Position numbers and translations under genes: made by a program
Shown here: piece after piece, positions 1-19,237 of the stretch
Position numbering within the stretch: the stretch's first letter is position 1
How the letters are laid out: every line of letters begins with the position of its first letter
The notes under the pieces: generated by a model
What the model was told of the DNA's origin: nothing
What the model saw: the letters and a program-made list of their open reading frames with translations, nothing else
Databases searched by the model: none
From: an uncultured virus (IMG/VR IMGVR_UViG_3300030451_003166)
Taxonomy: Duplodnaviria; Heunggongvirae; Uroviricota; Caudoviricetes; Crassvirales
DNA length: 20,000 nucleotides
Virus record (IMG/VR): IMGVR_UViG_3300030451_003166
Strand: one strand, 5' to 3'

Positions 1-746
1 TTAGCTTTATCTGTTATTTTTTGAGTAACAGTTTTATTTTTATTTTTTTCTGCTACTCTTTTTCTACGATCATATACTTTTTGAGCTTCATTATCTAACT
101 TAACAGTAGGGTTAAATTCAGGAGCTTTAACGCTTTTTAATTTTCTAGGTATATTTTTTGTCTTTAATTTTTTAATTCTCTTTTTCTTTAAAACTTTTGG
201 TTGTGCTGTCTTACCAATTTCTTTACCACCAGAGTAACGAGTAGTTTCTATAGTACGATCAGCTCTTTTAACAACCATATTCTGCACTGATTCACCTGAA
301 GTAGGATCAGTACCTACGTTTTTAATAGGTTTAACCCTGGTTGTACCGTCGGTATTTTTTATTTTTTGATCTTTTCTTCTTTTTTTCTGTTTTAATGGAG
401 ATTTTTTAGCTGATTTAGGTATTGGTTTTCCTTGTTTTTTCCAAATTGCCTTACCTTTCTCGTCTAGATCTTCATATCTAACCACATCTTCACGTTGTTT
501 TTTCAAAAACTTTATATCTTTTTTAGTATAACTTTTTGGAAAAGTTTTTTTCTGTTTTAACGGAGATTTTGGACAGTCACACTTGCTCATAGGCTTACCA
601 CAAGGACCCATTGCTAGTTTTTCTACTTTTTCAGCTTGCTCAGCATGCATTTTTGAAGCATTTTTAAGTTGACTTACAACTTTTTTTATAGTATTGTTCT
701 TAGGTGCTGTACCTGGGTATGAAAAACCCTTCATTTTAAATGCCAT
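1..746 (-). CDS. Lys-rich basic protein, FKMKG-YPG family (runs off the left edge)
   Basis: Not in the ORF track. Manual translation from ATG at 746: MAFKMKGFSYPGTAPKNNTIKK...KSPLKQKK...KSPLKQKK..., open to base 1. Confidence 0.85.
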   Translation of the reverse strand, partial: MAFKMKGFSYPGTAPKNNTIKKVVSQLKNASKMHAEQAEKVEKLAMGPCGKPMSKCDCPKSPLKQKKTFPKSYTKKDIKFLKKQREDVVRYEDLDEKGKAIWKKQGKPIPKSAKKSPLKQKKRRKDQKIKNTDGTTRVKPIKNVGTDPTSGESVQNMVVKRADRTIETTRYSGGKEIGKTAQPKVLKKKRIKKLKTKNIPRKLKSVKAPEFNPTVKLDNEAQKVYDRRKRVAEKNKNKTVTQKITDKA

Positions 747-757
747 ATATCTTGTTT

Positions 758-1246
758 TTATCTATTATATAACTCGTTCCTTGTTTTTTTACGCTTTTTC
801 TTGGTTTTTTTAGCCTCAACCGTATACATATCATCGTAAGGAGTCATATCACGTTTGATCCACTTAGCTTTTGCTAACCTTCTTGGATCTGATTTATGTT
901 TATTTTTAGTTCTATTGTTTCTAGCTGACTCAATTCTTCCTGTTTTGTCAAATTTTATTACAGATTTGTATCTACCACCGCTAAAAATTCCTTTATGCTC
1001 AGGATTACCAGACCCTCTTTTTGATTTTGTTACAACTTTTTTAAGAGTACCGTCACTTCTCCATTTTGATTTACTTCTCCAATGAGGTTTTCCTTTGTGC
1101 ATTTTAGCAGGACTTTCCTCTTTTTTGTTAATTATTACAGGTTGCACGTTAGCAGCATCTTCTTTTGCTTTTAAACCGTGCTTTGTACTAATTTGTTTAG
1201 TTGGAGATTTACCAGGGTAACCAAACCCTTTCATTTTAAAACTCAT
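758..1246 (-). CDS. Lys/Arg-rich basic protein, FKMKG-YPG family
   Basis: 162 aa; starts MSFKMKGFGYPGKSPTK and also contains SPAK. Confidence 0.85.
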   Translation of the reverse strand: MSFKMKGFGYPGKSPTKQISTKHGLKAKEDAANVQPVIINKKEESPAKMHKGKPHWRSKSKWRSDGTLKKVVTKSKRGSGNPEHKGIFSGGRYKSVIKFDKTGRIESARNNRTKNKHKSDPRRLAKAKWIKRDMTPYDDMYTVEAKKTKKKRKKTRNELYNR

Positions 1247-1782
1247 TACTTAGGATTTTTCTTAGCTTTTTCTTTTTTCTTTTTCATTTCCGCTAGCATC
1301 TTTTTATCTGCAGCTAATTCAGCTTCGTAATCTTCAACTTGTCCAGTATGTAGCGTGCCATCCGATGCTTGATAGTACTTTTTACCATCTTTATAAACTA
1401 TTTTACCTTTAGGCTTTTTTTCTGTTTTTTTGTTTTCAACTTTTTGTTTAGCTGGTGAAGACTTTCGTAATCTAGCTATTAAAGCTTTCTTTTTCTCTCT
1501 AAGTTCATTTGCCGTTAATTTACCTAGCTTAAAATCTCTGTGTAGTTTTCCAGCTTCTCTTTCGTACTCAGCATTATTACCACCAGTTACTGGATCAACC
1601 GCTCTTATTTGTTTTGGGTTTTCTTTTTGATCTGCTTTTATTCTACTGTTAGTAGTTGGTCCTTCGTTTTTTCTTTGCTTTACTGGTGAAACTAAATCAG
1701 ACTTCATCATGTCTCCTAGTTCTTTTAAAGCGGATCTATGTCCAGCTGTACCTTTTATTATTGATCTTTTTTGTTTATACAT
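1246..1782 (-). CDS. Lys-rich basic hypothetical protein with SPxK motifs
   Basis: 178 aa; SPVK and SPAK; its stop overlaps the next start by 1 bp. Confidence 0.8.
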   Translation of the reverse strand: MYKQKRSIIKGTAGHRSALKELGDMMKSDLVSPVKQRKNEGPTTNSRIKADQKENPKQIRAVDPVTGGNNAEYEREAGKLHRDFKLGKLTANELREKKKALIARLRKSSPAKQKVENKKTEKKPKGKIVYKDGKKYYQASDGTLHTGQVEDYEAELAADKKMLAEMKKKKEKAKKNPK

Positions 1783-1794
1783 GTTTATTTATTT

Positions 1795-2334
1795 TTAACA
1801 GTTCCATCTACGTCTAGCAGCTCGACCTCTTTCACCGGTCCAGCCTCTTGATCTAGCGCAAAATGATTTTCTACGATTAGCAGCTTTACTACCTTTTTTT
1901 AATTTTGAAGGTGGTGTTGTTACAGCTGTTTTTAATTTACTACCTGGATTTTTACGTTTGTACTCATCAACACCTTTTTGTGTCATACCACCACCTGCCG
2001 CAGCTCCTGTTCCAGTTGGTTTTGCTTTATTAAAGTTTTTACCAGGACCTATAGTTCTACGCACATCTGGTTTTTTTAACGGTGTTTCAAGTACAGCTTT
2101 GTCACCAGGAAAACTATAATCTTTACCTGGCTTCATTATTTTCTTTTTACCTGTTGTTAATCCTTCACCAACTATCTTACCCTTCTCAAGAGGTTTGCCA
2201 TCGTTTTCAGACATGCTAATCTTATTAGAAGGTATTATGTTTTGTTTGTTGTTTACATCTGGACTATCTTTTCTATATCCTGTATTTGTAACTTTCGTAC
2301 CAGGATAAGGAAAGCCTTTCATTTTAAATCCCAT
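1795..2334 (-). CDS. Basic protein, FKMKG-YPG family, with C-terminal RRKSFCAR...RRRWNC module
   Basis: 179 aa; starts MGFKMKGFPYPG. The C-terminal module resembles one I recall from aquatic phage hypothetical proteins. Confidence 0.85.
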   Translation of the reverse strand: MGFKMKGFPYPGTKVTNTGYRKDSPDVNNKQNIIPSNKISMSENDGKPLEKGKIVGEGLTTGKKKIMKPGKDYSFPGDKAVLETPLKKPDVRRTIGPGKNFNKAKPTGTGAAAGGGMTQKGVDEYKRKNPGSKLKTAVTTPPSKLKKGSKAANRRKSFCARSRGWTGERGRAARRRWNC

Positions 2335-2343
2335 ATTTATATA

Positions 2344-2715
2344 TTATGATACGTTGCTACTTGACGCTCTACGTCTACCCATACCAACTTTGTTTTTAGC
2401 TGCTACAACTTTACGTTTCTCGCCTTTACTCATTTCACTCCAGGTTTTAGGTGATTTGCTATTTACAGATCTTGAAGGTCTGCAAACTTTAGTTGATTGA
2501 TTCTTTTCAGAACCACACTCATTACCTTTGTTATCAGTCCACTTTTCTTTAAACCATCTTTTTAAATTAAGTCCAGCTTGTGTCTTTCTAACTTTAGCTG
2601 GAGAAGATTTACGACAACTACCTTTTGAACCAGGTGCCGTGCCAGGTACACGCTCGTAACCTTTCCAACAAGGAAGAGGACTATTCTTTTTAAATTTAGA
2701 CTTAATATCGTACAT
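2344..2715 (-). CDS. Basic protein with CWKGY and LKRWFKEKW modules
   Basis: 123 aa; the modules are preceded by SPLP and SPAK respectively. Confidence 0.8.
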   Translation of the reverse strand: MYDIKSKFKKNSPLPCWKGYERVPGTAPGSKGSCRKSSPAKVRKTQAGLNLKRWFKEKWTDNKGNECGSEKNQSTKVCRPSRSVNSKSPKTWSEMSKGEKRKVVAAKNKVGMGRRRASSSNVS

Positions 2716-3056
2716 TACTTTTTACCGCCTTTTTTCTTTCTACACTTAGCTATCATACCACTTGCGTATGCTGATGGAAATACTTTGTGAGCTGCCTTTG
2801 CTTTGTAATAACAGTCATCTTTTAATTTAGCAGGAGATGCAGCACCTTTCTTTGCGTGCGCTGCTGCGCCAGCTAAACCTAACGCACCTTTAGCTAAACC
2901 TGTTATAGAGTCCATGCCTTTTGATTTTGCTTTTTCTGATTTTTTTTGAGCGTCGACCTCGGATTGTTTTGCAGCATTTACTGCTTTGACTACGTCTGTA
3001 TCCATCTTCATTGGAGACTTACCTGGATATGCGTAACCTTTCATTTTGAATCCCAT
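2715..3056 (-). CDS. Basic protein, FKMKG-YPG family, with C-terminal FPSAYASG..AKCRK module
   Basis: 113 aa; starts MGFKMKGYAYPGKSPMK; first gene of the leftward operon. Confidence 0.85.
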   Translation of the reverse strand: MGFKMKGYAYPGKSPMKMDTDVVKAVNAAKQSEVDAQKKSEKAKSKGMDSITGLAKGALGLAGAAAHAKKGAASPAKLKDDCYYKAKAAHKVFPSAYASGMIAKCRKKKGGKK

Positions 3057-3088
3057 ACTGATTATTTTTAGATTACTATATATTCATA

Positions 3089-3115
3089 ATTATTACACGT
3101 AAAATATAGTATTTA
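3089..3115 (-). promoter_or_regulatory. Candidate promoter for the leftward operon (TAAA-N13-GTGTAATAAT)
   Basis: Lies 33 nt upstream of ATG 3056. Resembles TAAA-N14-GTGTGATTAT at 13248-13275. Confidence 0.3.
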
Positions 3116-3134
3116 CAATTGCATGTTTTAAAAG

Positions 3135-3181
3135 TGTGACAATAGCTTGTTACTAAGTATACTTATAAGGCTTATGTCACA
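3135..3181. promoter_or_regulatory. Inverted-repeat element copy A (TGTGACAATAGC...GGCTTATGTCACA)
   Basis: Arms at 3135-3147 and 3169-3181, with inner perfect palindrome TAAGTATACTTA at 3154-3165. A second copy is at 11211-11256. Confidence 0.65.
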
Positions 3182-3203
3182 AAAAAAAGTTGTTATAAAT
3201 TTT

Positions 3204-3279
3204 GGGGTGAAGTATTGCTCCCCCCTACTGCACCACCACCCCACCATGGAAAACGCATATTTTATGGCCACCCCCGGCC
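3204..3279. other. GC-rich C-tract island (candidate origin or genome end/packaging site)
   Basis: CCCCCC, CACCACCACCCCACC and GGCCACCCCCGGCC within otherwise very AT-rich intergenic DNA at the strand switch. Confidence 0.4.
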
Positions 3280-3290
3280 TCGTATTTATA

Positions 3291-3324
3291 TATATTATCA
3301 TTGTTTTGTCGTTTTTGTATTGTA
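3291..3324 (-). promoter_or_regulatory. Repeated promoter-like motif, leftward copy
   Basis: Minus strand reads TACAATACAAAAACGA-CAAAACAAT-GATAATATA (9-nt spacer). Confidence 0.65.
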
Positions 3325-3354
3325 AATTTATTTTTATTTATTACTAATTATTTT

Positions 3355-3388
3355 TACAACGTAAATACGAAGTTATGTTGATAATATA
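3355..3388 (+). promoter_or_regulatory. Repeated promoter-like motif copy 1
   Basis: TACAACGTAAATACGA-AGTTATGTT-GATAATATA. Confidence 0.75.
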
Positions 3389-3493
3389 TATGTAAAAAGA
3401 AACAAACAAAAATAAAATTAAATTGTAAACAGTGACAAAACGGCCAACAACATACAACTATAAAATAACTAATAAACAAAGTATCTACTTTTA

Positions 3494-3527
3494 TACAATG
3501 TAAATACGGCTAACAAAAGATAATATA
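3494..3527 (+). promoter_or_regulatory. Repeated promoter-like motif copy 2
   Basis: TACAATGTAAATACGG-CTAACAAAA-GATAATATA, upstream of ORF 3564. Confidence 0.75.
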
Positions 3528-3563
3528 ATAAAATAAATGTTTAACTAAATAAAAATAATAATT

Positions 3564-3800
3564 ATGAGTAAATTAAATGTAATTGAGTCTAAAAGATTCG
3601 TAGTAAGAAAATCCTTAATCGGTAAAAATCAAGTAATAGTATTCACAAATAAAAAAGGTGACGTTATTAAGTACAATCACGACAAAGTGTATGAAATTAT
3701 GAAGTCAAAACTAGAAAACATGCCATGTTGGAATAAGTACAAAAGTTACACAGCTACTAACAATATTCCGTTAGTGTGTAGAAATGTAGAAATACTATAA
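3564..3800 (+). CDS. Hypothetical early protein
   Basis: 78-aa ORF with an A-rich leader, downstream of a motif copy. Confidence 0.75.
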   Translation: MSKLNVIESKRFVVRKSLIGKNQVIVFTNKKGDVIKYNHDKVYEIMKSKLENMPCWNKYKSYTATNNIPLVCRNVEIL

Positions 3801-7185: not shown

Positions 7186-7388
7186 AAAAGAAAATATTTT
7201 GGAGCGATGAAGCCCATGTACATTGCCACAGAAACAATGGAAAATTGAGAGGTGGCTTGTATTTCAGAGCGTTTGACTTAGTTAAATTTATGAAACTAGT
7301 AGAAAAAGAAGAAGGAGAAGTAGTCGGATTAGAGTTCGAGGGTAATAATGTAAATGTAATAATAAAAGAGCATGAAGAAAATAATTGA
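7182..7388 (+). CDS. Hypothetical protein
   Basis: 68 aa; ATGA overlap. Confidence 0.7.
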   Translation: MKKKIFWSDEAHVHCHRNNGKLRGGLYFRAFDLVKFMKLVEKEEGEVVGLEFEGNNVNVIIKEHEENN

Positions 7389-7542
7389 ATTTTTTTGGAG
7401 TAATAATAATAAAATGTTAATGGAAAACTTAGAAAAATATGAGCAAAAAGAGAAAATTAAACAGCAAAAATCCAAAATACTGGGACAAAAGCAAGTTAAC
7501 CGAAAAACCAATAAAAGAAAAGAAACTGTTTTGCACGGTTAA
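7372..7542 (+). CDS. Possible hypothetical protein (56 aa)
   Basis: MKKIIEFFWSNNNKMLMENLEKYEQKEK...; overlaps the next ORF by about 100 bp. Confidence 0.4.
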   Translation: MKKIIEFFWSNNNKMLMENLEKYEQKEKIKQQKSKILGQKQVNRKTNKRKETVLHG

Positions 7543-7576
7543 AGGTGTCAAAGTATATGGAGTATGGTATAAATAA
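7439..7576 (+). CDS. Small basic protein (45 aa)
   Basis: MSKKRKLNSKNPKYWDKSKLTEKPIKEKKLFCTVKGVKVYGVWYK. Confidence 0.55.
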   Translation: MSKKRKLNSKNPKYWDKSKLTEKPIKEKKLFCTVKGVKVYGVWYK

Positions 7577-7733
7577 CGAGGTGAGGGTGGTAGCGCGTGA
7601 GATGTGTATGAGCAGCCAGTACTACTGGGTAAGTCTCAGTCTTACTCACTTGGCAGAACGGCAGGATAAAGCAAAAATGGTGAGAAACTGGTTTGAAGTC
7701 CACACCATAGAACCACACCTGCCCGACTTCGTT
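7575..7733 (+). ncRNA. Candidate multi-stem structured RNA
   Basis: GC-enriched. Closing stem AACGAGGT/ACTTCGTT; internal stems TGGGTAAG/CTTACTCA, GGCAGG/CCTGCC and ATGGTG/CACCAT. Confidence 0.5.
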
Positions 7734-7767
7734 TACAATACAAATACGAATAAAGCAAGATAATAAA
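7734..7767 (+). promoter_or_regulatory. Repeated promoter-like motif copy 8
   Basis: TACAATACAAATACGA-ATAAAGCAA-GATAATAAA. Confidence 0.75.
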
Positions 7768-7792
7768 CACGTAACAAATAAAATTAAATAAT

Positions 7793-8167
7793 ATGCAAGA
7801 ACTTGAAAACAAGAAAGCTGCGTTAGAGCTTTTACAAAACGAAACTAACGAAAAACTAAACGATTACAAGCAACAAATATCTATATTACAAAAGCAAATA
7901 GATGACTACAACAAACCAGCATTAACACCTATGTATATGGACAAGATATATGAGGCAATTGAGATTGGTGTTGATGGTTTTGACTTTGATGATACTGACA
8001 ACTATGACATTGAGTACGGTATTGATTATGACGGTAGAGTACATTGTGAGAGCTTTGGATTTAGCAATGCGAGTGACTTAGTGCAAGAAGTTGCAGATGA
8101 AGTAATGAAGCTGTTCAGAGAAGCTGAGTGTCCAGATGAAGATGATAACCAAAAAAACCAAGACTAA
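7793..8167 (+). CDS. Coiled-coil and highly acidic protein
   Basis: 124 aa; N-terminal heptad pattern and a D/E-rich C-terminal half. Confidence 0.8.
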   Translation: MQELENKKAALELLQNETNEKLNDYKQQISILQKQIDDYNKPALTPMYMDKIYEAIEIGVDGFDFDDTDNYDIEYGIDYDGRVHCESFGFSNASDLVQEVADEVMKLFREAECPDEDDNQKNQD

Positions 8168-8168
8168 T

Positions 8169-8402
8169 ATGAAAACGCTATATGATAGATTAAAACCACA
8201 GTACAAAGATGTAATATATTCTCATCAAGAAAAATATTCTACATCTATAAACTCTCTTATTGAGACGCTTAAAACAAAACATACTTGGTTTTCACTAGAG
8301 GTAAGTGACGTATCAACGTTTCTAACATTCACAGATGTACCATTATATAACCTAACTAGCTCAGACGTTATGTTTGGCTCTAAATTTTTTACAAATGAAT
8401 AG
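8169..8402 (+). CDS. Hypothetical protein
   Basis: Likely start MKTLYDRLK at 8169, just after the previous stop (ORF track start 8136). Confidence 0.7.
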   Translation: MKTLYDRLKPQYKDVIYSHQEKYSTSINSLIETLKTKHTWFSLEVSDVSTFLTFTDVPLYNLTSSDVMFGSKFFTNE

Positions 8403-8456
8403 AATAAAACCACTTACAAAACCAAAAGGAATTTTTTTAATTACAAACCCAGGAAA

Positions 8457-8711
8457 ATGACAGCATTACAAGTAGAAAAATATATAAGAGAAGATCTTGG
8501 TATGACACCAAGACATGATTGCCATGCATTAGCACAAGCGATAACAGATATATCGTTAGACATGGACTATGATGAGTGCGAGCTAATGTATCTATTACTA
8601 GAAAATAGACCGATAGATGCCTTACACACTCATAGTTATGGCTTTCACACAAGAAACGGAAGAGAAATTATTAACAGAATGAAAAATTATTATTATGAGT
8701 ACACAAGTTAA
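8457..8711 (+). CDS. Hypothetical protein
   Basis: 84-aa ORF. Confidence 0.7.
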   Translation: MTALQVEKYIREDLGMTPRHDCHALAQAITDISLDMDYDECELMYLLLENRPIDALHTHSYGFHTRNGREIINRMKNYYYEYTS

Positions 8712-8961
8712 ACAAGAATTACCTAAATGGTTTAAAGGTGTTGTTTATGACGAAGGAGCAGAAGTTAGAAACCCTTATTCAGGAGAATCAATATACTTAA
8801 ACAATATAGAGTTAAGTATGTACGACCTTACAATGGGAGCTAGCACTGTATACGAGATGTTAAACGGCAACTGTAAACCACAAATAGTTAAAGATCTACG
8901 TAGAGGATTAGACTGGTTTAGAAAATATAACGCAAAAGCGTATATGATATTGTTAGACTAA
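8695..8961 (+). CDS. Hypothetical protein
   Basis: 88 aa; C-terminus ...GLDWFRKYNAKAYMILLD. Confidence 0.75.
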   Translation: MSTQVKQELPKWFKGVVYDEGAEVRNPYSGESIYLNNIELSMYDLTMGASTVYEMLNGNCKPQIVKDLRRGLDWFRKYNAKAYMILLD

Positions 8962-9425
8962 TGTTTTATTATTTACTAGGTTTTCTAATCGTAATATATA
9001 TATATTATGGTTTAGAAGTTTATATACAAGAAAATAAGTTTAAAAAAAATAAAGGAAAAATGAGTACAAGAGCACAAATTAGATTCGCAACAAGAGAAGA
9101 AGGTGTATCGTTTAATGAACATCCAGAAAAATTTCACGCACAGTTTTATAAACACCACGACGGTTATCCTGAAGGATTAGGTATAGACTTAGCAACAACA
9201 TTACTAGGTGGTAATAGTTCTGATGCTGTACCATTAGAAATAGACAGTTTAGACACAAGGCGTGGTGATGTAGAATATATATACTATATATGGCAAGCGC
9301 CATTAAAAACAACTTGGATAAGTATATTTGAAACTAGACCTTGGCAAGATGAAGAGGATAAATGTATATTTGTAGGTGAACCACAAAAACTAATAAACAA
9401 ATACAATACAAATACGAATGACTAA
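8961..9425 (+). CDS. Hypothetical protein (MSTRA...YKHHDGYP type) with in-frame hydrophobic N-terminal extension
   Basis: 154 aa; an alternative start is ATG 9060 (MSTRAQIRF). Confidence 0.75.
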   Translation: MFYYLLGFLIVIYIYYGLEVYIQENKFKKNKGKMSTRAQIRFATREEGVSFNEHPEKFHAQFYKHHDGYPEGLGIDLATTLLGGNSSDAVPLEIDSLDTRRGDVEYIYYIWQAPLKTTWISIFETRPWQDEEDKCIFVGEPQKLINKYNTNTND

Positions 9426-9435
9426 AGATAATAAA
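9402..9435 (+). promoter_or_regulatory. Repeated promoter-like motif copy 9
   Basis: TACAATACAAATACGA-ATGACTAAA-GATAATAAA. Confidence 0.75.
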
Positions 9436-9444
9436 AATAAACAA

Positions 9445-9723
9445 ATGACAAACGACGAATTAAACGACTTAGCAAACAGAATTGTTTCACGTATGGTAAA
9501 GCTAAAGTCAATGGAAGACTGGTTTAATCACGTTGGCAATACAAAAGCAGCATGGTCTAGCTACGAAGATCTTAACTTATCTGAAGAGGTTGAGGCTCTA
9601 GGCGAGGCTGCAAAGCTAATGACTTTGATGAACTTATGTCAAGATGACGAAGAGTACGAAAAATGTGCTATCATAAGAAACAGAATGAATGAAGTAAACA
9701 AGATATTAAAGAAATACAAATGA
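9445..9723 (+). CDS. Protein with C-terminal UVR (UvrB/UvrC)-like helical hairpin
   Basis: DDEEYEKCAIIRNRM resembles the UVR motif. Start moved to 9445 because ATG 9418 lies inside the promoter-like motif. Confidence 0.6.
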   Translation: MTNDELNDLANRIVSRMVKLKSMEDWFNHVGNTKAAWSSYEDLNLSEEVEALGEAAKLMTLMNLCQDDEEYEKCAIIRNRMNEVNKILKKYK

Positions 9724-15058: not shown

Positions 15059-16773
15059 TGAATAGAGAAGAGATCAATGGATTTTTGATTGATGAGTTCA
15101 ATCAATACGGCCTAAAAGAGGGCGCAACACAAGGCACTTGCCCGTTGTGCTCTCACACTAGGAAACCTAAGAATCAGAAGCTAAAATGTGCTTCTTATGA
15201 TTGGGAACGTGGTCTCGGTACCTGTCACAATTGCAATACTAGTTTTCAACTTCATACTTACCAACGCAAGGGTAACAGCGAACGTGTTTATACTAGACCG
15301 GAAACGCCTACCGACTTCAACGAGGTAAGTACGAATGTTGAAACATGGTTTGAAAATAGAGGTATATCAAAGCAAACACTCAGAGATCTTCAAGTTACTG
15401 AAGGTCCTGAGTTTATGCCTCAGACAGGTAAATCAGAAAATACTATTCAGTTTAACTATTTAATGGGTGGACAACTCATTAATGTTAAATACAGAGACGG
15501 TAGAAAAAACTTTAAGCTTTATAAAGGAGCTGAAAAAGTATTTTATAATATCGATAGTATTGTAGGTTACGATTGGTGTGTTGTTACAGAAGGTGAAATG
15601 GATGTGTTAGCATTACATGAAGCTGGTGTACCAAATGCAATATCAGTACCAAACGGAGCCACGTTAAACAATAACAACTTAGATTATTTAGATAACTGTA
15701 TTGATTACTTTGAAGACAAAGCCAAGATTATATTAGCTGTAGATGCTGATGAAGCTGGTCAAGTTTTAAGACAAGAGCTAGTTAGACGTTTAGGCGCTGA
15801 GGTTTGTTACTTAGTTGATTTTAACGGTAACAAAGACGCTAACGACTATTTATTAGAACATGGTAAAGAGTCATTACGTAATGTAATATTAAACTCTAAC
15901 CCTGTTCCTCTTGAAAATGTATCAACACTTAGAGATATAGAAAATGAACTTAAAGACTTTGTTAAAAACGGTTTTAAACCAGGTTTCCAAGTTGGGCTTA
16001 GTAACTTCGATAAGATTTTTTCTACTTATACTGGGCAGTTTATTACTGTTACTGGTATCCCTAGTTCTGGTAAGTCTGACTTTGTTGACCAAATGGTTGT
16101 TGGTTACAACAATAACTATGGTTGGAAAACTGCGTACGCTTCTCCAGAAAATCAACCAATATATCTACACGCGCACAAACTAATGCGTAAGCATTGGCAA
16201 GACATGCCAAGTGTGGGTGATATTGGAGGTAACAAATGGGAACAAGTAGCAAACCACGTCAATGACAATTACTTTTTTATAGATATGGATAAGTATAACT
16301 TAGAGTCTATATTAAAAAAGGGTGCTGAACTTGTTAAACGTAAAGGTATTAAATGTTTGGTTATAGACCCGTTTAATAAAGTTAGAGATACAAACGCAGC
16401 ATCAGATGACGTAAACCGTTATACAATGGACTATTTAGCTAAGATTGAGTCTTTTTGTAAAAAGTATGATGTATTAACTTTTATTGTGGCACACCCTACT
16501 AAAATGTACAAAGGTCAAGATGGTAAAATTGAAGAACCAACAATGTACAATATTAAAGGTGGTGGTGAATGGTACGATGCTAGTTATCACGGTTTGTTAG
16601 TTCACAGAGATTATGAAGCTAAAACAACTAAAGTAAAAGTACTTAAAGTTAAGTTTCAAAACCTCGGTGAAAATGGGGCTGAATCACATTTTACTTGGGA
16701 GCCTAAATCTGGAAGCTTTATACCACATGAAGCTTTAGTTGAAGAGGGTGAACCAATGCCTTGGGAATCATAA
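15058..16773 (+). CDS. DNA primase-helicase (T7 gp4/Twinkle-like)
   Basis: Zn finger CPLC...CHNC, TOPRIM EGEMD and DADEAG, Walker A GIPSSGKS, LVIDP, VAHP. Confidence 0.93.
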   Translation: MNREEINGFLIDEFNQYGLKEGATQGTCPLCSHTRKPKNQKLKCASYDWERGLGTCHNCNTSFQLHTYQRKGNSERVYTRPETPTDFNEVSTNVETWFENRGISKQTLRDLQVTEGPEFMPQTGKSENTIQFNYLMGGQLINVKYRDGRKNFKLYKGAEKVFYNIDSIVGYDWCVVTEGEMDVLALHEAGVPNAISVPNGATLNNNNLDYLDNCIDYFEDKAKIILAVDADEAGQVLRQELVRRLGAEVCYLVDFNGNKDANDYLLEHGKESLRNVILNSNPVPLENVSTLRDIENELKDFVKNGFKPGFQVGLSNFDKIFSTYTGQFITVTGIPSSGKSDFVDQMVVGYNNNYGWKTAYASPENQPIYLHAHKLMRKHWQDMPSVGDIGGNKWEQVANHVNDNYFFIDMDKYNLESILKKGAELVKRKGIKCLVIDPFNKVRDTNAASDDVNRYTMDYLAKIESFCKKYDVLTFIVAHPTKMYKGQDGKIEEPTMYNIKGGGEWYDASYHGLLVHRDYEAKTTKVKVLKVKFQNLGENGAESHFTWEPKSGSFIPHEALVEEGEPMPWES

Positions 16774-17039
16774 TGGGAAAGAAATTTCATAGATCACCTA
16801 GAAAATCACCACCAAGAAGAAGTTGGACTCCTGAAGAGTTAAAAATAATAGGTTGGTGTTTAAATAGAAAAATAGGTGTAGGAATAAGCCCTGACTGGAA
16901 AGATGATTGGAACAGATGGCAAATAGATATATCTATAAATGGTAAAACGCACACCGACCCTAATAGATATAAAGATGAAGATGTGTATGACAAAGTTAAC
17001 GAATATTATAAATACTACTATGATAAATACAATAAATAA
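16773..17039 (+). CDS. Hypothetical protein
   Basis: Likely start at the TAATG overlap (MGKKFHRS...). Confidence 0.7.
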   Translation: MGKKFHRSPRKSPPRRSWTPEELKIIGWCLNRKIGVGISPDWKDDWNRWQIDISINGKTHTDPNRYKDEDVYDKVNEYYKYYYDKYNK

Positions 17040-17676
17040 TAAAGTCTTTAGAAATGCAAATGAAGCCTACGAGTATTTACACGACAGAATAATACAAGAC
17101 GGTACAGATTTTGCAGGTACTAAAGCATTGTTTAATGTAGGTTTTTATATGACAGAACCTACGGAAAACAAAATAACAAACAAAGAGCGTAACTGGAAAA
17201 AAGATTATGCTGAAGCTGAATGGCAATGGTACTTATCTGGCGATCGTAACATAGCTAAGCTTGGTGAGTTATATGGTAAAGTGCCAGCTATATGGAAACG
17301 TATGGCTGATGTTGATGGTAACGTAAACTCTAACTACGGTTGGCAATGGCAACGTAATCAACAGCTTGATAATGTAATTAAATTACTTAAAACACTACCT
17401 GAAACTAGACAAGCGGCTATATCTATATATGATGCTAAAGAGTATGATAAATATGCTTATGACACTCCATGTACATACGCTGTACAGTTTACAATTCACC
17501 GCGGAAAATTAGATATGTGTGTAACAATGCGTAGCAACGACTTATGGTATGGTTTTTGTAACGATCAATACTGTTTCTCTGAGCTGCAAAAGATGGTCTC
17601 TAATGAATTAAATATTAAACCTGGTGTATATTATCATTTTGCACATAATATGCATCTATATAATGACAAAATATGA
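17020..17676 (+). CDS. Thymidylate-synthase-fold enzyme, dCMP hydroxymethylase (T4 gp42)-like
   Basis: NSNYGW, PCTYAVQF, MRSNDLWYGFCND, NMHLY. Likely start 17020 (ORF track start 16939). Confidence 0.8.
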   Translation: MINTINNKVFRNANEAYEYLHDRIIQDGTDFAGTKALFNVGFYMTEPTENKITNKERNWKKDYAEAEWQWYLSGDRNIAKLGELYGKVPAIWKRMADVDGNVNSNYGWQWQRNQQLDNVIKLLKTLPETRQAAISIYDAKEYDKYAYDTPCTYAVQFTIHRGKLDMCVTMRSNDLWYGFCNDQYCFSELQKMVSNELNIKPGVYYHFAHNMHLYNDKI

Positions 17677-18506
17677 CGTATTGTATATACCATATACCGG
17701 GTGTAAAAATAGGTGTAACAAACAATGTGAGATACAGAGTTGAAGAGCAACAAGGTTATAAAGAAGGAGAATATGAAATAGTTGAAATGTCAGATGACAT
17801 AAACTATATCTCTGAAAAAGAACATGAGCTTCAACGTAAGTACGGTTATAGAGTAGACCGAAAACTATACTCTGAATTATTTAATAACAATTTTATAAAA
17901 TTAAAAACTATGAACATTAACGTAACAGAAATGACAACAACGTTTCCATGTCCTGTAAACAAACTAAAAGGTCGACTCATGGACAATAAAGGTATGAGAT
18001 GGGATATAGCTGGAACTAGTGTTGTATTGACAGATGCTACCATATCGTGGATTATGGATAATATTAAATGCTCTCAGTATACAAATGATAGATGTTATAT
18101 CTATAATAAAGCTTTTACTAGATGGTTTGATAATAACGATCCTTATGACGGTAAAACTTTAACAGGTGCTTTATCACCAACAGGTGTAAGATGTGCACAA
18201 CCTGATTGTAGTAACGAAACCTTATTTGACTGTATAAGAGTATGGGCTAACGAAAGAGGTTTATACGACAAGGGTGATGTCAAAACACAGTATATAAAAC
18301 TAATGGAAGAAACAGGAGAAATAGGTAGAGCTATACTAAAAGAAGATACTGAAGAGGTTATTGACGGTATTGGTGATGCTGTAGTTGTACTAACAAACTT
18401 AGCAGAACTAGTTGGTGTACCTATTGAAGACTGTATGCAGCAAGCTTATAATGTGATAAGCAAGAGAACAGGTAAAATGGTTAACGGAACATTTAAAAAA
18501 GATTAA
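17673..18506 (+). CDS. MazG-like NTP pyrophosphohydrolase with a GIY-YIG-like N-terminal region
   Basis: C-terminal KLMEETGEIGRA...DGIGDAVVVL; N-terminal YCIYHIPGVKIGVTNNVRYR. Confidence 0.8.
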   Translation: MTYCIYHIPGVKIGVTNNVRYRVEEQQGYKEGEYEIVEMSDDINYISEKEHELQRKYGYRVDRKLYSELFNNNFIKLKTMNINVTEMTTTFPCPVNKLKGRLMDNKGMRWDIAGTSVVLTDATISWIMDNIKCSQYTNDRCYIYNKAFTRWFDNNDPYDGKTLTGALSPTGVRCAQPDCSNETLFDCIRVWANERGLYDKGDVKTQYIKLMEETGEIGRAILKEDTEEVIDGIGDAVVVLTNLAELVGVPIEDCMQQAYNVISKRTGKMVNGTFKKD

Positions 18507-18507
18507 T

Positions 18508-18807
18508 ATGTCAGATAGAGAAATTATGGATAGCAAAAACGGTATCGTAGCTAGAAAGTCTTATGGCTTTCGTGATGAGGTCGTTAAAAATGTAGTTGAT
18601 AAGTTTGTTGATAGATCAGACGTCGGCTACGAAAAGTATGGTCAAACATTACACGATGAAAGAACATCAAACGTTAAAGGTTTGGCTGATTATTTAAATG
18701 ATATACAAGAAGAGCTTATGGATGCGATATTGTATATACAAACAGCTAGAGAAGAACTCGAAGAGTTAAAAGCTTTAAAAAACCCTTTTTTAAATGAAAA
18801 GGCGTAG
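18508..18807 (+). CDS. Small all-alpha NTP-pyrophosphatase-like protein
   Basis: RSDVGYEKYG...IQEELMDAILY (EExxD motif). Confidence 0.55.
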   Translation: MSDREIMDSKNGIVARKSYGFRDEVVKNVVDKFVDRSDVGYEKYGQTLHDERTSNVKGLADYLNDIQEELMDAILYIQTAREELEELKALKNPFLNEKA

Positions 18808-19237
18808 AAAAAAAGGTCCCGTCAGATCAAAGAAAGTCACGTTTGACGGGATTACTTTTGCTTCTGGATTAGAACGTTACATGTATCAAGTATTAAAGAA
18901 AGCTAAAATACATACCGAATACGAAGGTTGTACGTTTATACTACAAGAAGGTTTTATGCTTGATAACAGATCGTACGAAAGACAAAGTAATGGTAAAGGT
19001 GATATGGTTGATAGAGGTAGTAAAAAAATATTACCAATAAAATATACACCAGACTTTATTGGTTATGATTATGTTATTGAGTGTAAAGGTAGAGCTAACG
19101 AAAGCTTCCCACTTAGATGGAAAATGTTTAAAAAATATGTAAATCATAAGATGAAACATGTAACTTTATATAAACCTCAGAACCAAAAAGAATGTGACAA
19201 AGTAATTGAATTAATAACTAAAAACAGAAATAAATGA
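18794..19237 (+). CDS. T7 endonuclease I-like Holliday junction resolvase
   Basis: FASGLE, YTPDF, IECKG motifs. Confidence 0.8.
   Translation: MKRRRKKGPVRSKKVTFDGITFASGLERYMYQVLKKAKIHTEYEGCTFILQEGFMLDNRSYERQSNGKGDMVDRGSKKILPIKYTPDFIGYDYVIECKGRANESFPLRWKMFKKYVNHKMKHVTLYKPQNQKECDKVIELITKNRNK

Follow-up and report, generated by a model that had tools for sequence, protein, structure and literature searches.

Ser-Pro-hydrophobic joints between modules of small basic phage proteins, a candidate processing site of head-internal cargo

Resemblance to described head-processing systems

In phage T4, gp21 cleaves internal proteins after L/I-X-E and so strips off their 10-residue capsid targeting sequence (PMC9026906). 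Here, we compare this system with six genes for small basic proteins (g1 to g6) in a 20,000-nucleotide (20-kb) stretch of the uncultured virus IMGVR_UViG_3300030451_003166, hereafter the window. In these proteins a short motif, S/T-P-hydrophobic with or without a following Lys, joins distinct modules. The motif is enriched, constrained at the protein level and placed at module starts; in T4-like phages with the same modules, a signal ending in Glu takes its place. On balance, we slightly favour the view that Bacteroidota phages process head-internal cargo at this motif, in a manner specific to their lineage. The MxFK(M/L) leader at the N-terminus would carry the basic proteins into the head as it assembles, and the S/T-P-hydrophobic(-K) joints would be recognised by a protease particular to the lineage. 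Cutting there would remove the leader and free the modules, as gp21 does for the T4 internal proteins, and the basic peptides released would pack with the DNA. g1 to g6 would be chains built of short basic modules for which other phages have separate small genes.

The resemblance to the T4 internal proteins (IPI-III and Alt) has several sides. Both have a common N-terminal leader that sits on unrelated small basic proteins and ends in a short motif, and in both the motif is repeated between segments. Moreover, T4-like cyanophages place a Glu-ending signal before the very same modules. Unlike in the T4 system, the joints of the window are S/T-P-hydrophobic and not a Glu after L/I-X-E, no gp21-family protease was found among 21 late proteins of the related genome G002, and the scaffold-like and presumed capsid proteins of relatives lack the strict motif. 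As part of the processing reading, and with the same slight preference, we suggest that the window proteins work in the manner of T4 targeting and cleavage while falling outside that family, having another motif and no gp21. The systems of phiKZ (gp175) and SPN3US (S/A-X-E; PMC9026906) also combine a short linear motif with several sites per substrate and act on internal head proteins. They differ in being Glu-specific and in having large ejection proteins of jumbo myophages as substrates. In the literature, searched mostly outside subscription journals, we found no description of these DUF5872/DUF6321 joints or of SPXK phage polyproteins.

The motif and the modules behind it

SP-x-K occurs 9 times in the 1003 amino acids (aa) of g1 to g6. 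When the six proteins were shuffled internally 20000 times, the mean was 0.77 and the maximum 6, with 0/20000 shuffles reaching 9. The frequency does not match what amino-acid composition predicts, a comparison that a preliminary description of this DNA had proposed. Scrambled motifs remained at chance (PS-x-K, 1 with 0.77 expected; S-x-PK, 0 with 0.76 expected), and a chance origin of SP-x-K is rejected by the shuffles and these controls. TP-x-K, tried as a motif in its own right, showed no enrichment (1 vs 0.71). The other arm of the window has a single SP-x-K in the 5167 aa of its 37 plus-strand open reading frames (ORFs).

The corresponding DNA pattern, S/T-P-hydrophobic-K, has 10 matches in the 20-kb window, all of them within 390-3017 and equal to the in-frame sites. 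This total is not above chance window-wide (mean 5.9; 20/200 shuffles reach 10), and the signal is the confinement. The motif is maintained at the protein level, because its Ser codons vary (TCT, TCA or AGT) and the matches sit in the coding frame. The related locus L087 has 21 matches to the DNA pattern where 6.75 are expected (0/100 shuffles), and 15 of its 16 plus-strand matches lie in small basic genes.

We extended the counts to five related records (G002-G006; completeness 61-99%, with G002 at 99%). The strict pattern SP-h-K, where h is hydrophobic, was used for the final counts, a looser one having been dropped for picking up SPSK/SPCK noise. It occurs 14 times in 3910 aa of basic ORFs vs 6 times in 75488 aa of the others. 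Four of these six sites are one conserved portal SPTKD, one lies in a leader-bearing small gene and one in a giant late protein. The portal SPTKD stands at residue 571-573 in 4/5 related records (G002 25003-27408, G003 18242-20605, G004 7269-9671 and G005 16676-19018) and is missing in G006; it may be structural or a real site.

The eleven motif sites of the preliminary description were all retrieved in the genes to which they had been assigned, on the minus strand. Genes, joints and leader copies are as follows.

3..746, minus strand: g1, >248 aa, extending beyond the window; a leader followed by at least three modules, with two SPLK joints
758..1246, minus strand: g2, 162 aa; the leader closes with SPTK; second joint SPAK
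1246..1782, minus strand: g3, 178 aa; joints SPVK and SPAK
1795..2334, minus strand: g4, 179 aa; leader, phi17:2-type module, TPLK, DUF6321 module
2344..2715, minus strand: g5, 123 aa; SPLP, CWKGY module, SPAK, DUF5872 module
2715..3056, minus strand: g6, 113 aa; leader closing with SPMK, helical module, SPAK, KDxCY...PSAYASG module
390..401, minus strand: SPLK joint, g1 residue 116
555..566, minus strand: SPLK joint, g1 residue 61
1103..1114, minus strand: SPAK joint, g2 residue 45
1196..1207, minus strand: SPTK joint, end of the g2 leader
1447..1458, minus strand: SPAK joint, g3 residue 109
1678..1689, minus strand: SPVK joint, g3 residue 32
2074..2085, minus strand: TPLK, g4 residue 84; module swap point, partly module-encoded
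2593..2604, minus strand: SPAK joint, g5, immediately ahead of the first residues of the DUF5872 module
2671..2682, minus strand: SPLP, g5, immediately ahead of CWKGY; matches the S-P-hydrophobic core
2826..2837, minus strand: SPAK joint, g6, five residues ahead of the start of the KDxCY module
3006..3017, minus strand: SPMK joint, end of the g6 leader
701..746, minus strand: leader copy 1 (g1), MxFKMKG-type, 46 nucleotides (nt)
1201..1246, minus strand: leader copy 2 (g2), MxFKMKG-type, 46 nt
2289..2334, minus strand: leader copy 3 (g4), MxFKMKG-type, 46 nt
3011..3056, minus strand: leader copy 4 (g6), MxFKMKG-type, 46 nt

The leader common to these four of the six genes reads MxFKMKG(F/Y)xYPG, with 70-76% identity between its 46-nt copies. 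It terminates in the SP-h-K motif in two of the four (g2 and g6), and the same is seen in L081-L087; a degenerate pattern for the leader matched in 7 loci. Pfam domains were recognised in g4 (DUF6321, PF19846; 45.7 bits vs a gathering cut-off of 28.5) and in g5 (DUF5872, PF19197; 47.1 bits vs 27.5), the joints and the leader lying outside both models. Pfam and PHROG searches with g1 to g3 gave no match.

Wherever homologues allow a test, the joints mark module boundaries. The upstream edge of the DUF5872 module was available for 76 of 80 loci. It lies at or beside a start codon in 72 of these: the ORF opens with M-A-V-R-K-T or a near variant in 63, a Met stands just ahead in 3, and a Val, possibly a GTG start, in 6. 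The remaining four modules sit directly behind SPMK, SPFK or the variants SALK and SAVK, in the same register as behind the SPAK of the window. In L083 and L086, the module behind the second SPLK of g1 forms a separate gene, and in L087 it comes after a joint that contains SP. The two modules of g4 correspond to two separate L087 genes, with the break at TPLK; a Glu-x-Pro just before TPLK belongs to the conserved first module, which makes this site ambiguous. A 442-aa protein of L087 has the N- and C-terminal modules of g3 in common with it, and not the middle part.

These stand-alone genes and module swaps (g1, g4 and the DUF5872 modules) break at the motif, which bears out two proposals of the preliminary description, namely that the motif precedes separate modules and that swaps between homologues break there. 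Its RRKSFCAR example holds in part: TPLK fronts the module that contains RRKSFCAR, but the block itself lies ~65 residues behind TPLK. By our reading, 9/11 window sites fall at the end of a leader or at a homologue-defined boundary. For the sites at g2 residue 45 and g3 residue 32, no homologue of the following sequence was found among the loci read, nor was there one for the g2 modules.

The KDxCY...PSAYASG module allowed the core of the motif to be examined. S/T-P-hydrophobic occurs in 25/42 distinct non-T4 contexts upstream of it, and in 19/42 the S/T stands at exactly -5 from the module. Lys is found at +3 in only 5 of these 19 fixed-position contexts, the other 14 having T, E, Y, M, L or F (hand count). 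The 17 contexts lacking the motif are mostly lysine-rich N-termini of short genes. Because the +3 Lys is replaced in 14/19, the invariant core is S/T-P-hydrophobic, with a dispensable Lys; the SPLP of g5 falls within this core. The contexts point to S/T-P-hydrophobic as a recognition element kept at a fixed distance.

These contexts also bear on an alternative raised by the preliminary description, that of an SPKK-like minor-groove-binding motif. Such a motif, or an S/T-P-x-K phosphorylation motif, would help basic proteins to condense AT-rich DNA. The proteins are basic (23-30% Lys+Arg), the GC content of the window is ~31-37%, and SPAK is found literally in them; SPAK and TPVK occur in histone H1 tails. 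However, SPKK-type motifs require a basic residue at +3 and usually also at +2. The joints do not follow this pattern: the Lys is dispensable, as described above, and the third residue of all 9 window SP-x-K sites is A, L, M, V or T, always hydrophobic or Thr and never basic. Moreover, the position of the motif is tied to module starts, it also occurs in an acidic stretch (L008), and equally basic homologues lack it. Hence, the SPKK alternative is disfavoured, and we consider it highly unlikely. A small ORF of the replication arm (16761-17039, plus strand) opens with a basic Ser-Pro repeat (SPRK, SPPR) that resembles a true SPKK-type motif more closely than do the joints of the late arm.

Junctions of the same modules in other phage lineages

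The modules of the window are also found inside longer proteins of T4-like cyanophages. We tallied the distinct 10-residue upstream contexts of four modules from 106 loci. Hydrophobic-x-Glu occurs in 14/19 T4-like contexts vs 22% of random 10-mers of the same proteins, in a count whose hydrophobic class also admitted V, F, M, Q and T and which kept one of 8 T4-like DUF6321 contexts that is possibly a false module match. The Ser-Pro motif is found in 0/19 of these contexts, and SP-h-K has no occurrence in 5030 aa. Among the contexts from non-T4 loci, 31/72 have the Ser-Pro motif and 5/72 hydrophobic-x-Glu. The T4-like cyanophage S-CRM01 encodes gp21 and has a capsid protein with L-A-E-A near its N-terminus. 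In the T4-like lineage, the only one with known chemistry, the junction ends in the residue after which the head protease cuts. Some cyanophage genes in or beside the module polyproteins open with a Phe/Tyr-containing leader of ~10 residues that ends in Glu, like the T4 capsid targeting sequence (L088 1927-2619, L090 1906-2565, L091 436-1728 and L102 3080-4444).

Other phages keep the modules single or join them differently. The DUF6321 module is a stand-alone gene of 75-82 aa in the T7-like S-TIP28 and in HTVC028P; T7-like heads are not known to have a maturation protease. Synechococcus phage P60 (L104 1397-1612) was rejected as a further stand-alone case, as the annotated coding sequence does not read as the module; this suggests a wrong-frame annotation over the DUF6321 match. 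In Cellulophaga phage phi17:2, the first g4 module opens a protein (gp041) annotated as virion structural, an annotation also found in phi4:1, and is followed by FQAGG, which is repeated through the protein. A protein of Lbo-JY46 has a similar layout, with a repeated (F/Y/L)-(Q/K)-x-G-G behind the module. Both proteins resemble g4 in having its N-terminal module with a repeated short motif directly behind it, and differ from it in the chemistry of that motif. One module pool is thus joined by three lineage-specific junction codes: Glu-ending, Gly-Gly and Ser-Pro-hydrophobic.

The variety of codes is relevant to a second alternative, in which the motif is a by-product of DNA-level shuffling, a short repeat that serves as a recombination joint and leaves a harmless in-frame linker. 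In its favour, some copies are nearly identical in DNA (families D2-D4) and module swaps break at the motif. Yet Ser is written with TCN as well as AGT and the codons thus differ synonymously, the matches are restricted to the coding frame, and other lineages place other amino-acid motifs at the same positions. The motif may aid shuffling without this being the reason why it is kept. We regard the shuffling explanation as very unlikely.

Candidate enzyme, capsid proteins and genomic setting

A candidate for the processing enzyme is a 103-144 aa protein encoded near GroEL (in L087 at 9348-9695), with an M-x-F-K start, an HExxH and a later Glu in 12/12 sequences (H55, E56, H59 and E97 are invariant). 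The L008 protein opens with the same leader as the window genes. In the predicted structure (pLDDT 78), the HExxH lies on a helix after a three-strand sheet. Searches of Pfam, PHROG and PDB and a fold comparison ranked mostly metallopeptidases highest, selecase leading in both searches of PDB. Minigluzincins (selecase MJ1213 and abylysin) and IrrE/PprI, the top sequence and fold matches, resemble the protein in their size near 105 aa and in the HExxH followed by a later Glu, but every match is below significance. A search of NCBIfam gave nothing useful, and a profile of 5 sequences against PDB returned only noise. The gene is present in 7 of 80 DUF5872 loci. All 7 have at least two motifs, vs 7/73 loci without the gene, and three of these latter seven end before or at the place where the HExxH gene is expected. 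The co-occurrence may reflect descent only, and the leader makes a role as cargo as fitting as one as enzyme. We therefore name this leader-bearing, mini-metallopeptidase-like protein as a tentative candidate that is rather unlikely to be the processing enzyme. Two other proteins contain the HExxH motif. One is larger (238 aa; L038 8176-8892), has a MAFKM leader and is encoded between motif-bearing genes. The other is the giant late protein of ~3000 aa (L002 23-7519; L110:4494-13427), another possible processing enzyme.

Several observations weigh against the processing reading. The first come from the head proteins of relatives G002-G006, which stand in for the genome of the window. The preliminary description had proposed looking for the motif in capsid or scaffold proteins; the strict form is found in 0/5 acidic scaffold-like proteins and in 0/5 presumed capsid proteins. 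The latter (481-490 aa) is encoded behind the scaffold-like protein, is presumed to be the capsid protein from where it lies, its size and a PHROG match to 'virion structural protein', and had no match in PDB. No protease family was recognised among the 21 late proteins of G002 that were scanned, other late ORFs of this genome lying outside the scan, and the head modules of three named relatives have no protease among their annotations. The HExxH gene is found in 3/5 related records, is cut off in a fourth, was not seen in G005 and is not in the window. Its homologues occur in 11 records of other, larger phages, and its matches are all sub-threshold (E 0.23; Foldseek E 0.5; none reaches E 0.001). 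Strict L/I-X-E stands in only 2/19 T4-like contexts (hand count), the rest being V/F/Q/T-x-E, and the upstream contexts, all taken from related genomes, do not count as independent. Finally, we infer from sequence the packaging, the function of the leader, the cutting and the cut bond, which would lie within or just after the motif.

A classical prohead protease common to scaffold, capsid and cargo is not supported, because the scaffold-like and presumed capsid proteins lack the strict motif and no protease family was found. The maturation-protease site of the preliminary description stands in another form. The position at module boundaries and the Glu-ending signal on the same modules in gp21-encoding cyanophages argue for it, its classical version is weakened, and the cut itself is presumptive.

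The main rival to processing is an uncut docking tag: the repeated S/T-P-hydrophobic would bind a pocket of capsid, scaffold or portal and load the fused modules, perhaps by mimicking the N-terminal arm of the capsid protein. The presence of up to four copies of the motif in one protein, as in L087 and L086, suits such a tag, as does the failure to find a canonical protease. A look-alike, A-P-(I/M)-K-(Q/H), noticed after the fact, lies ~15 residues from the N-terminus of the presumed capsid protein in 3/5 records (L108:11599-13056 and counterparts), but it would suit a cut site equally. At the same place one of the five records has A-A-V-K-Q and one has no match. MW202828 has S-P-Q-Q there, and its small basic genes show no motif. 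A protein of 406-420 aa encoded just before the giant late protein opens with some basic residues and TPLKQ in 2 of the 4 genomes read for it (L109:12005-13222 in G002, and G004 23917-25179), the G005 and G006 counterparts being without it. However, a docking tag need not keep a fixed distance to the module, as seen upstream of the KDxCY module, nor need it be swapped for a Glu-ending signal in phages with gp21, and stand-alone versions of the modules lack it. The docking explanation is possible, but we judge it doubtful.

The processing reading can be given a more specific form, which we think unlikely as a whole. In such a cargo-only system of Crassvirales-related Bacteroidota phages, for which no prohead protease is recognised, the MxFK(M/L) leader would load both the basic polyproteins and a leader-tagged zinc mini-protease into the head. 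There the enzyme would cut at the S/T-P-hydrophobic joints and might also cut the capsid protein in its N-terminal arm. The module pool would move between distant phage groups and be re-tagged each time with the local protease code (Glu, Gly-Gly or Ser-Pro-hydrophobic), and the protease specificity could be read from the module junctions alone.

The window has two divergent arms, one rightward from 3564 and one leftward from 3056. The left arm consists of g1 to g6, consecutive on the minus strand. The right arm contains small early genes and replication genes, and its primase-helicase (15058) is nearest to that of Cellulophaga phage phi10:1 (41.5%). This is the only right-arm identity between 9720 and 19998 that was checked by comparison. 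The others were assigned by eye, all on the plus strand: an ATP-dependent ligase (9720), a sigma-like factor (12479), a single-stranded DNA annealing protein (13304), a thymidylate-synthase-like gene (16939), a MazG-like fusion (17673) and a ribonucleotide reductase (19375). Between the arms, a GC-rich island with short G and C runs (3213-3283) stands out from the otherwise AT-rich sequence that separates the divergent genes; a genome end or packaging site may be nearby. Scanning 3000-3600 for promoters yielded 10 weak sites where 4.4 are expected, a result not used as evidence.

L087, L086 and L083 carry a like cluster of basic genes, followed by GroEL, holin, terminase and an 800-aa portal. 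Among named phages, relatives of that portal are found in Elemovirus, Cellulophaga, Tenacibaculum and Maribacter phages (87 records, with identities of 40-50% at best). We therefore infer that the late arm of a Bacteroidota phage begins in the window. As part of the processing reading, we lean towards g1 to g6 encoding cargo of the late arm in a Bacteroidota phage akin to Elemovirus and to Cellulophaga podophages. In this phage group, GroEL and GroES-like proteins are encoded directly behind the basic-gene cluster (L087 4920-6488 and 13805-14395; L008, L009 and L059).

Small basic modules such as DUF6321 and DUF5872 are widespread in abundant aquatic phages, and two of the modules matched 48 and 365 records. 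If the joints are cut sites, these modules would be peptides inside the head, and the specificity of the maturation protease could be predicted from the junctions in phage groups without a recognised one. If true, the finding would implicate a metalloprotease in the processing of head cargo, where a serine protease is usual, and would provide a new leader for loading proteins into capsids.

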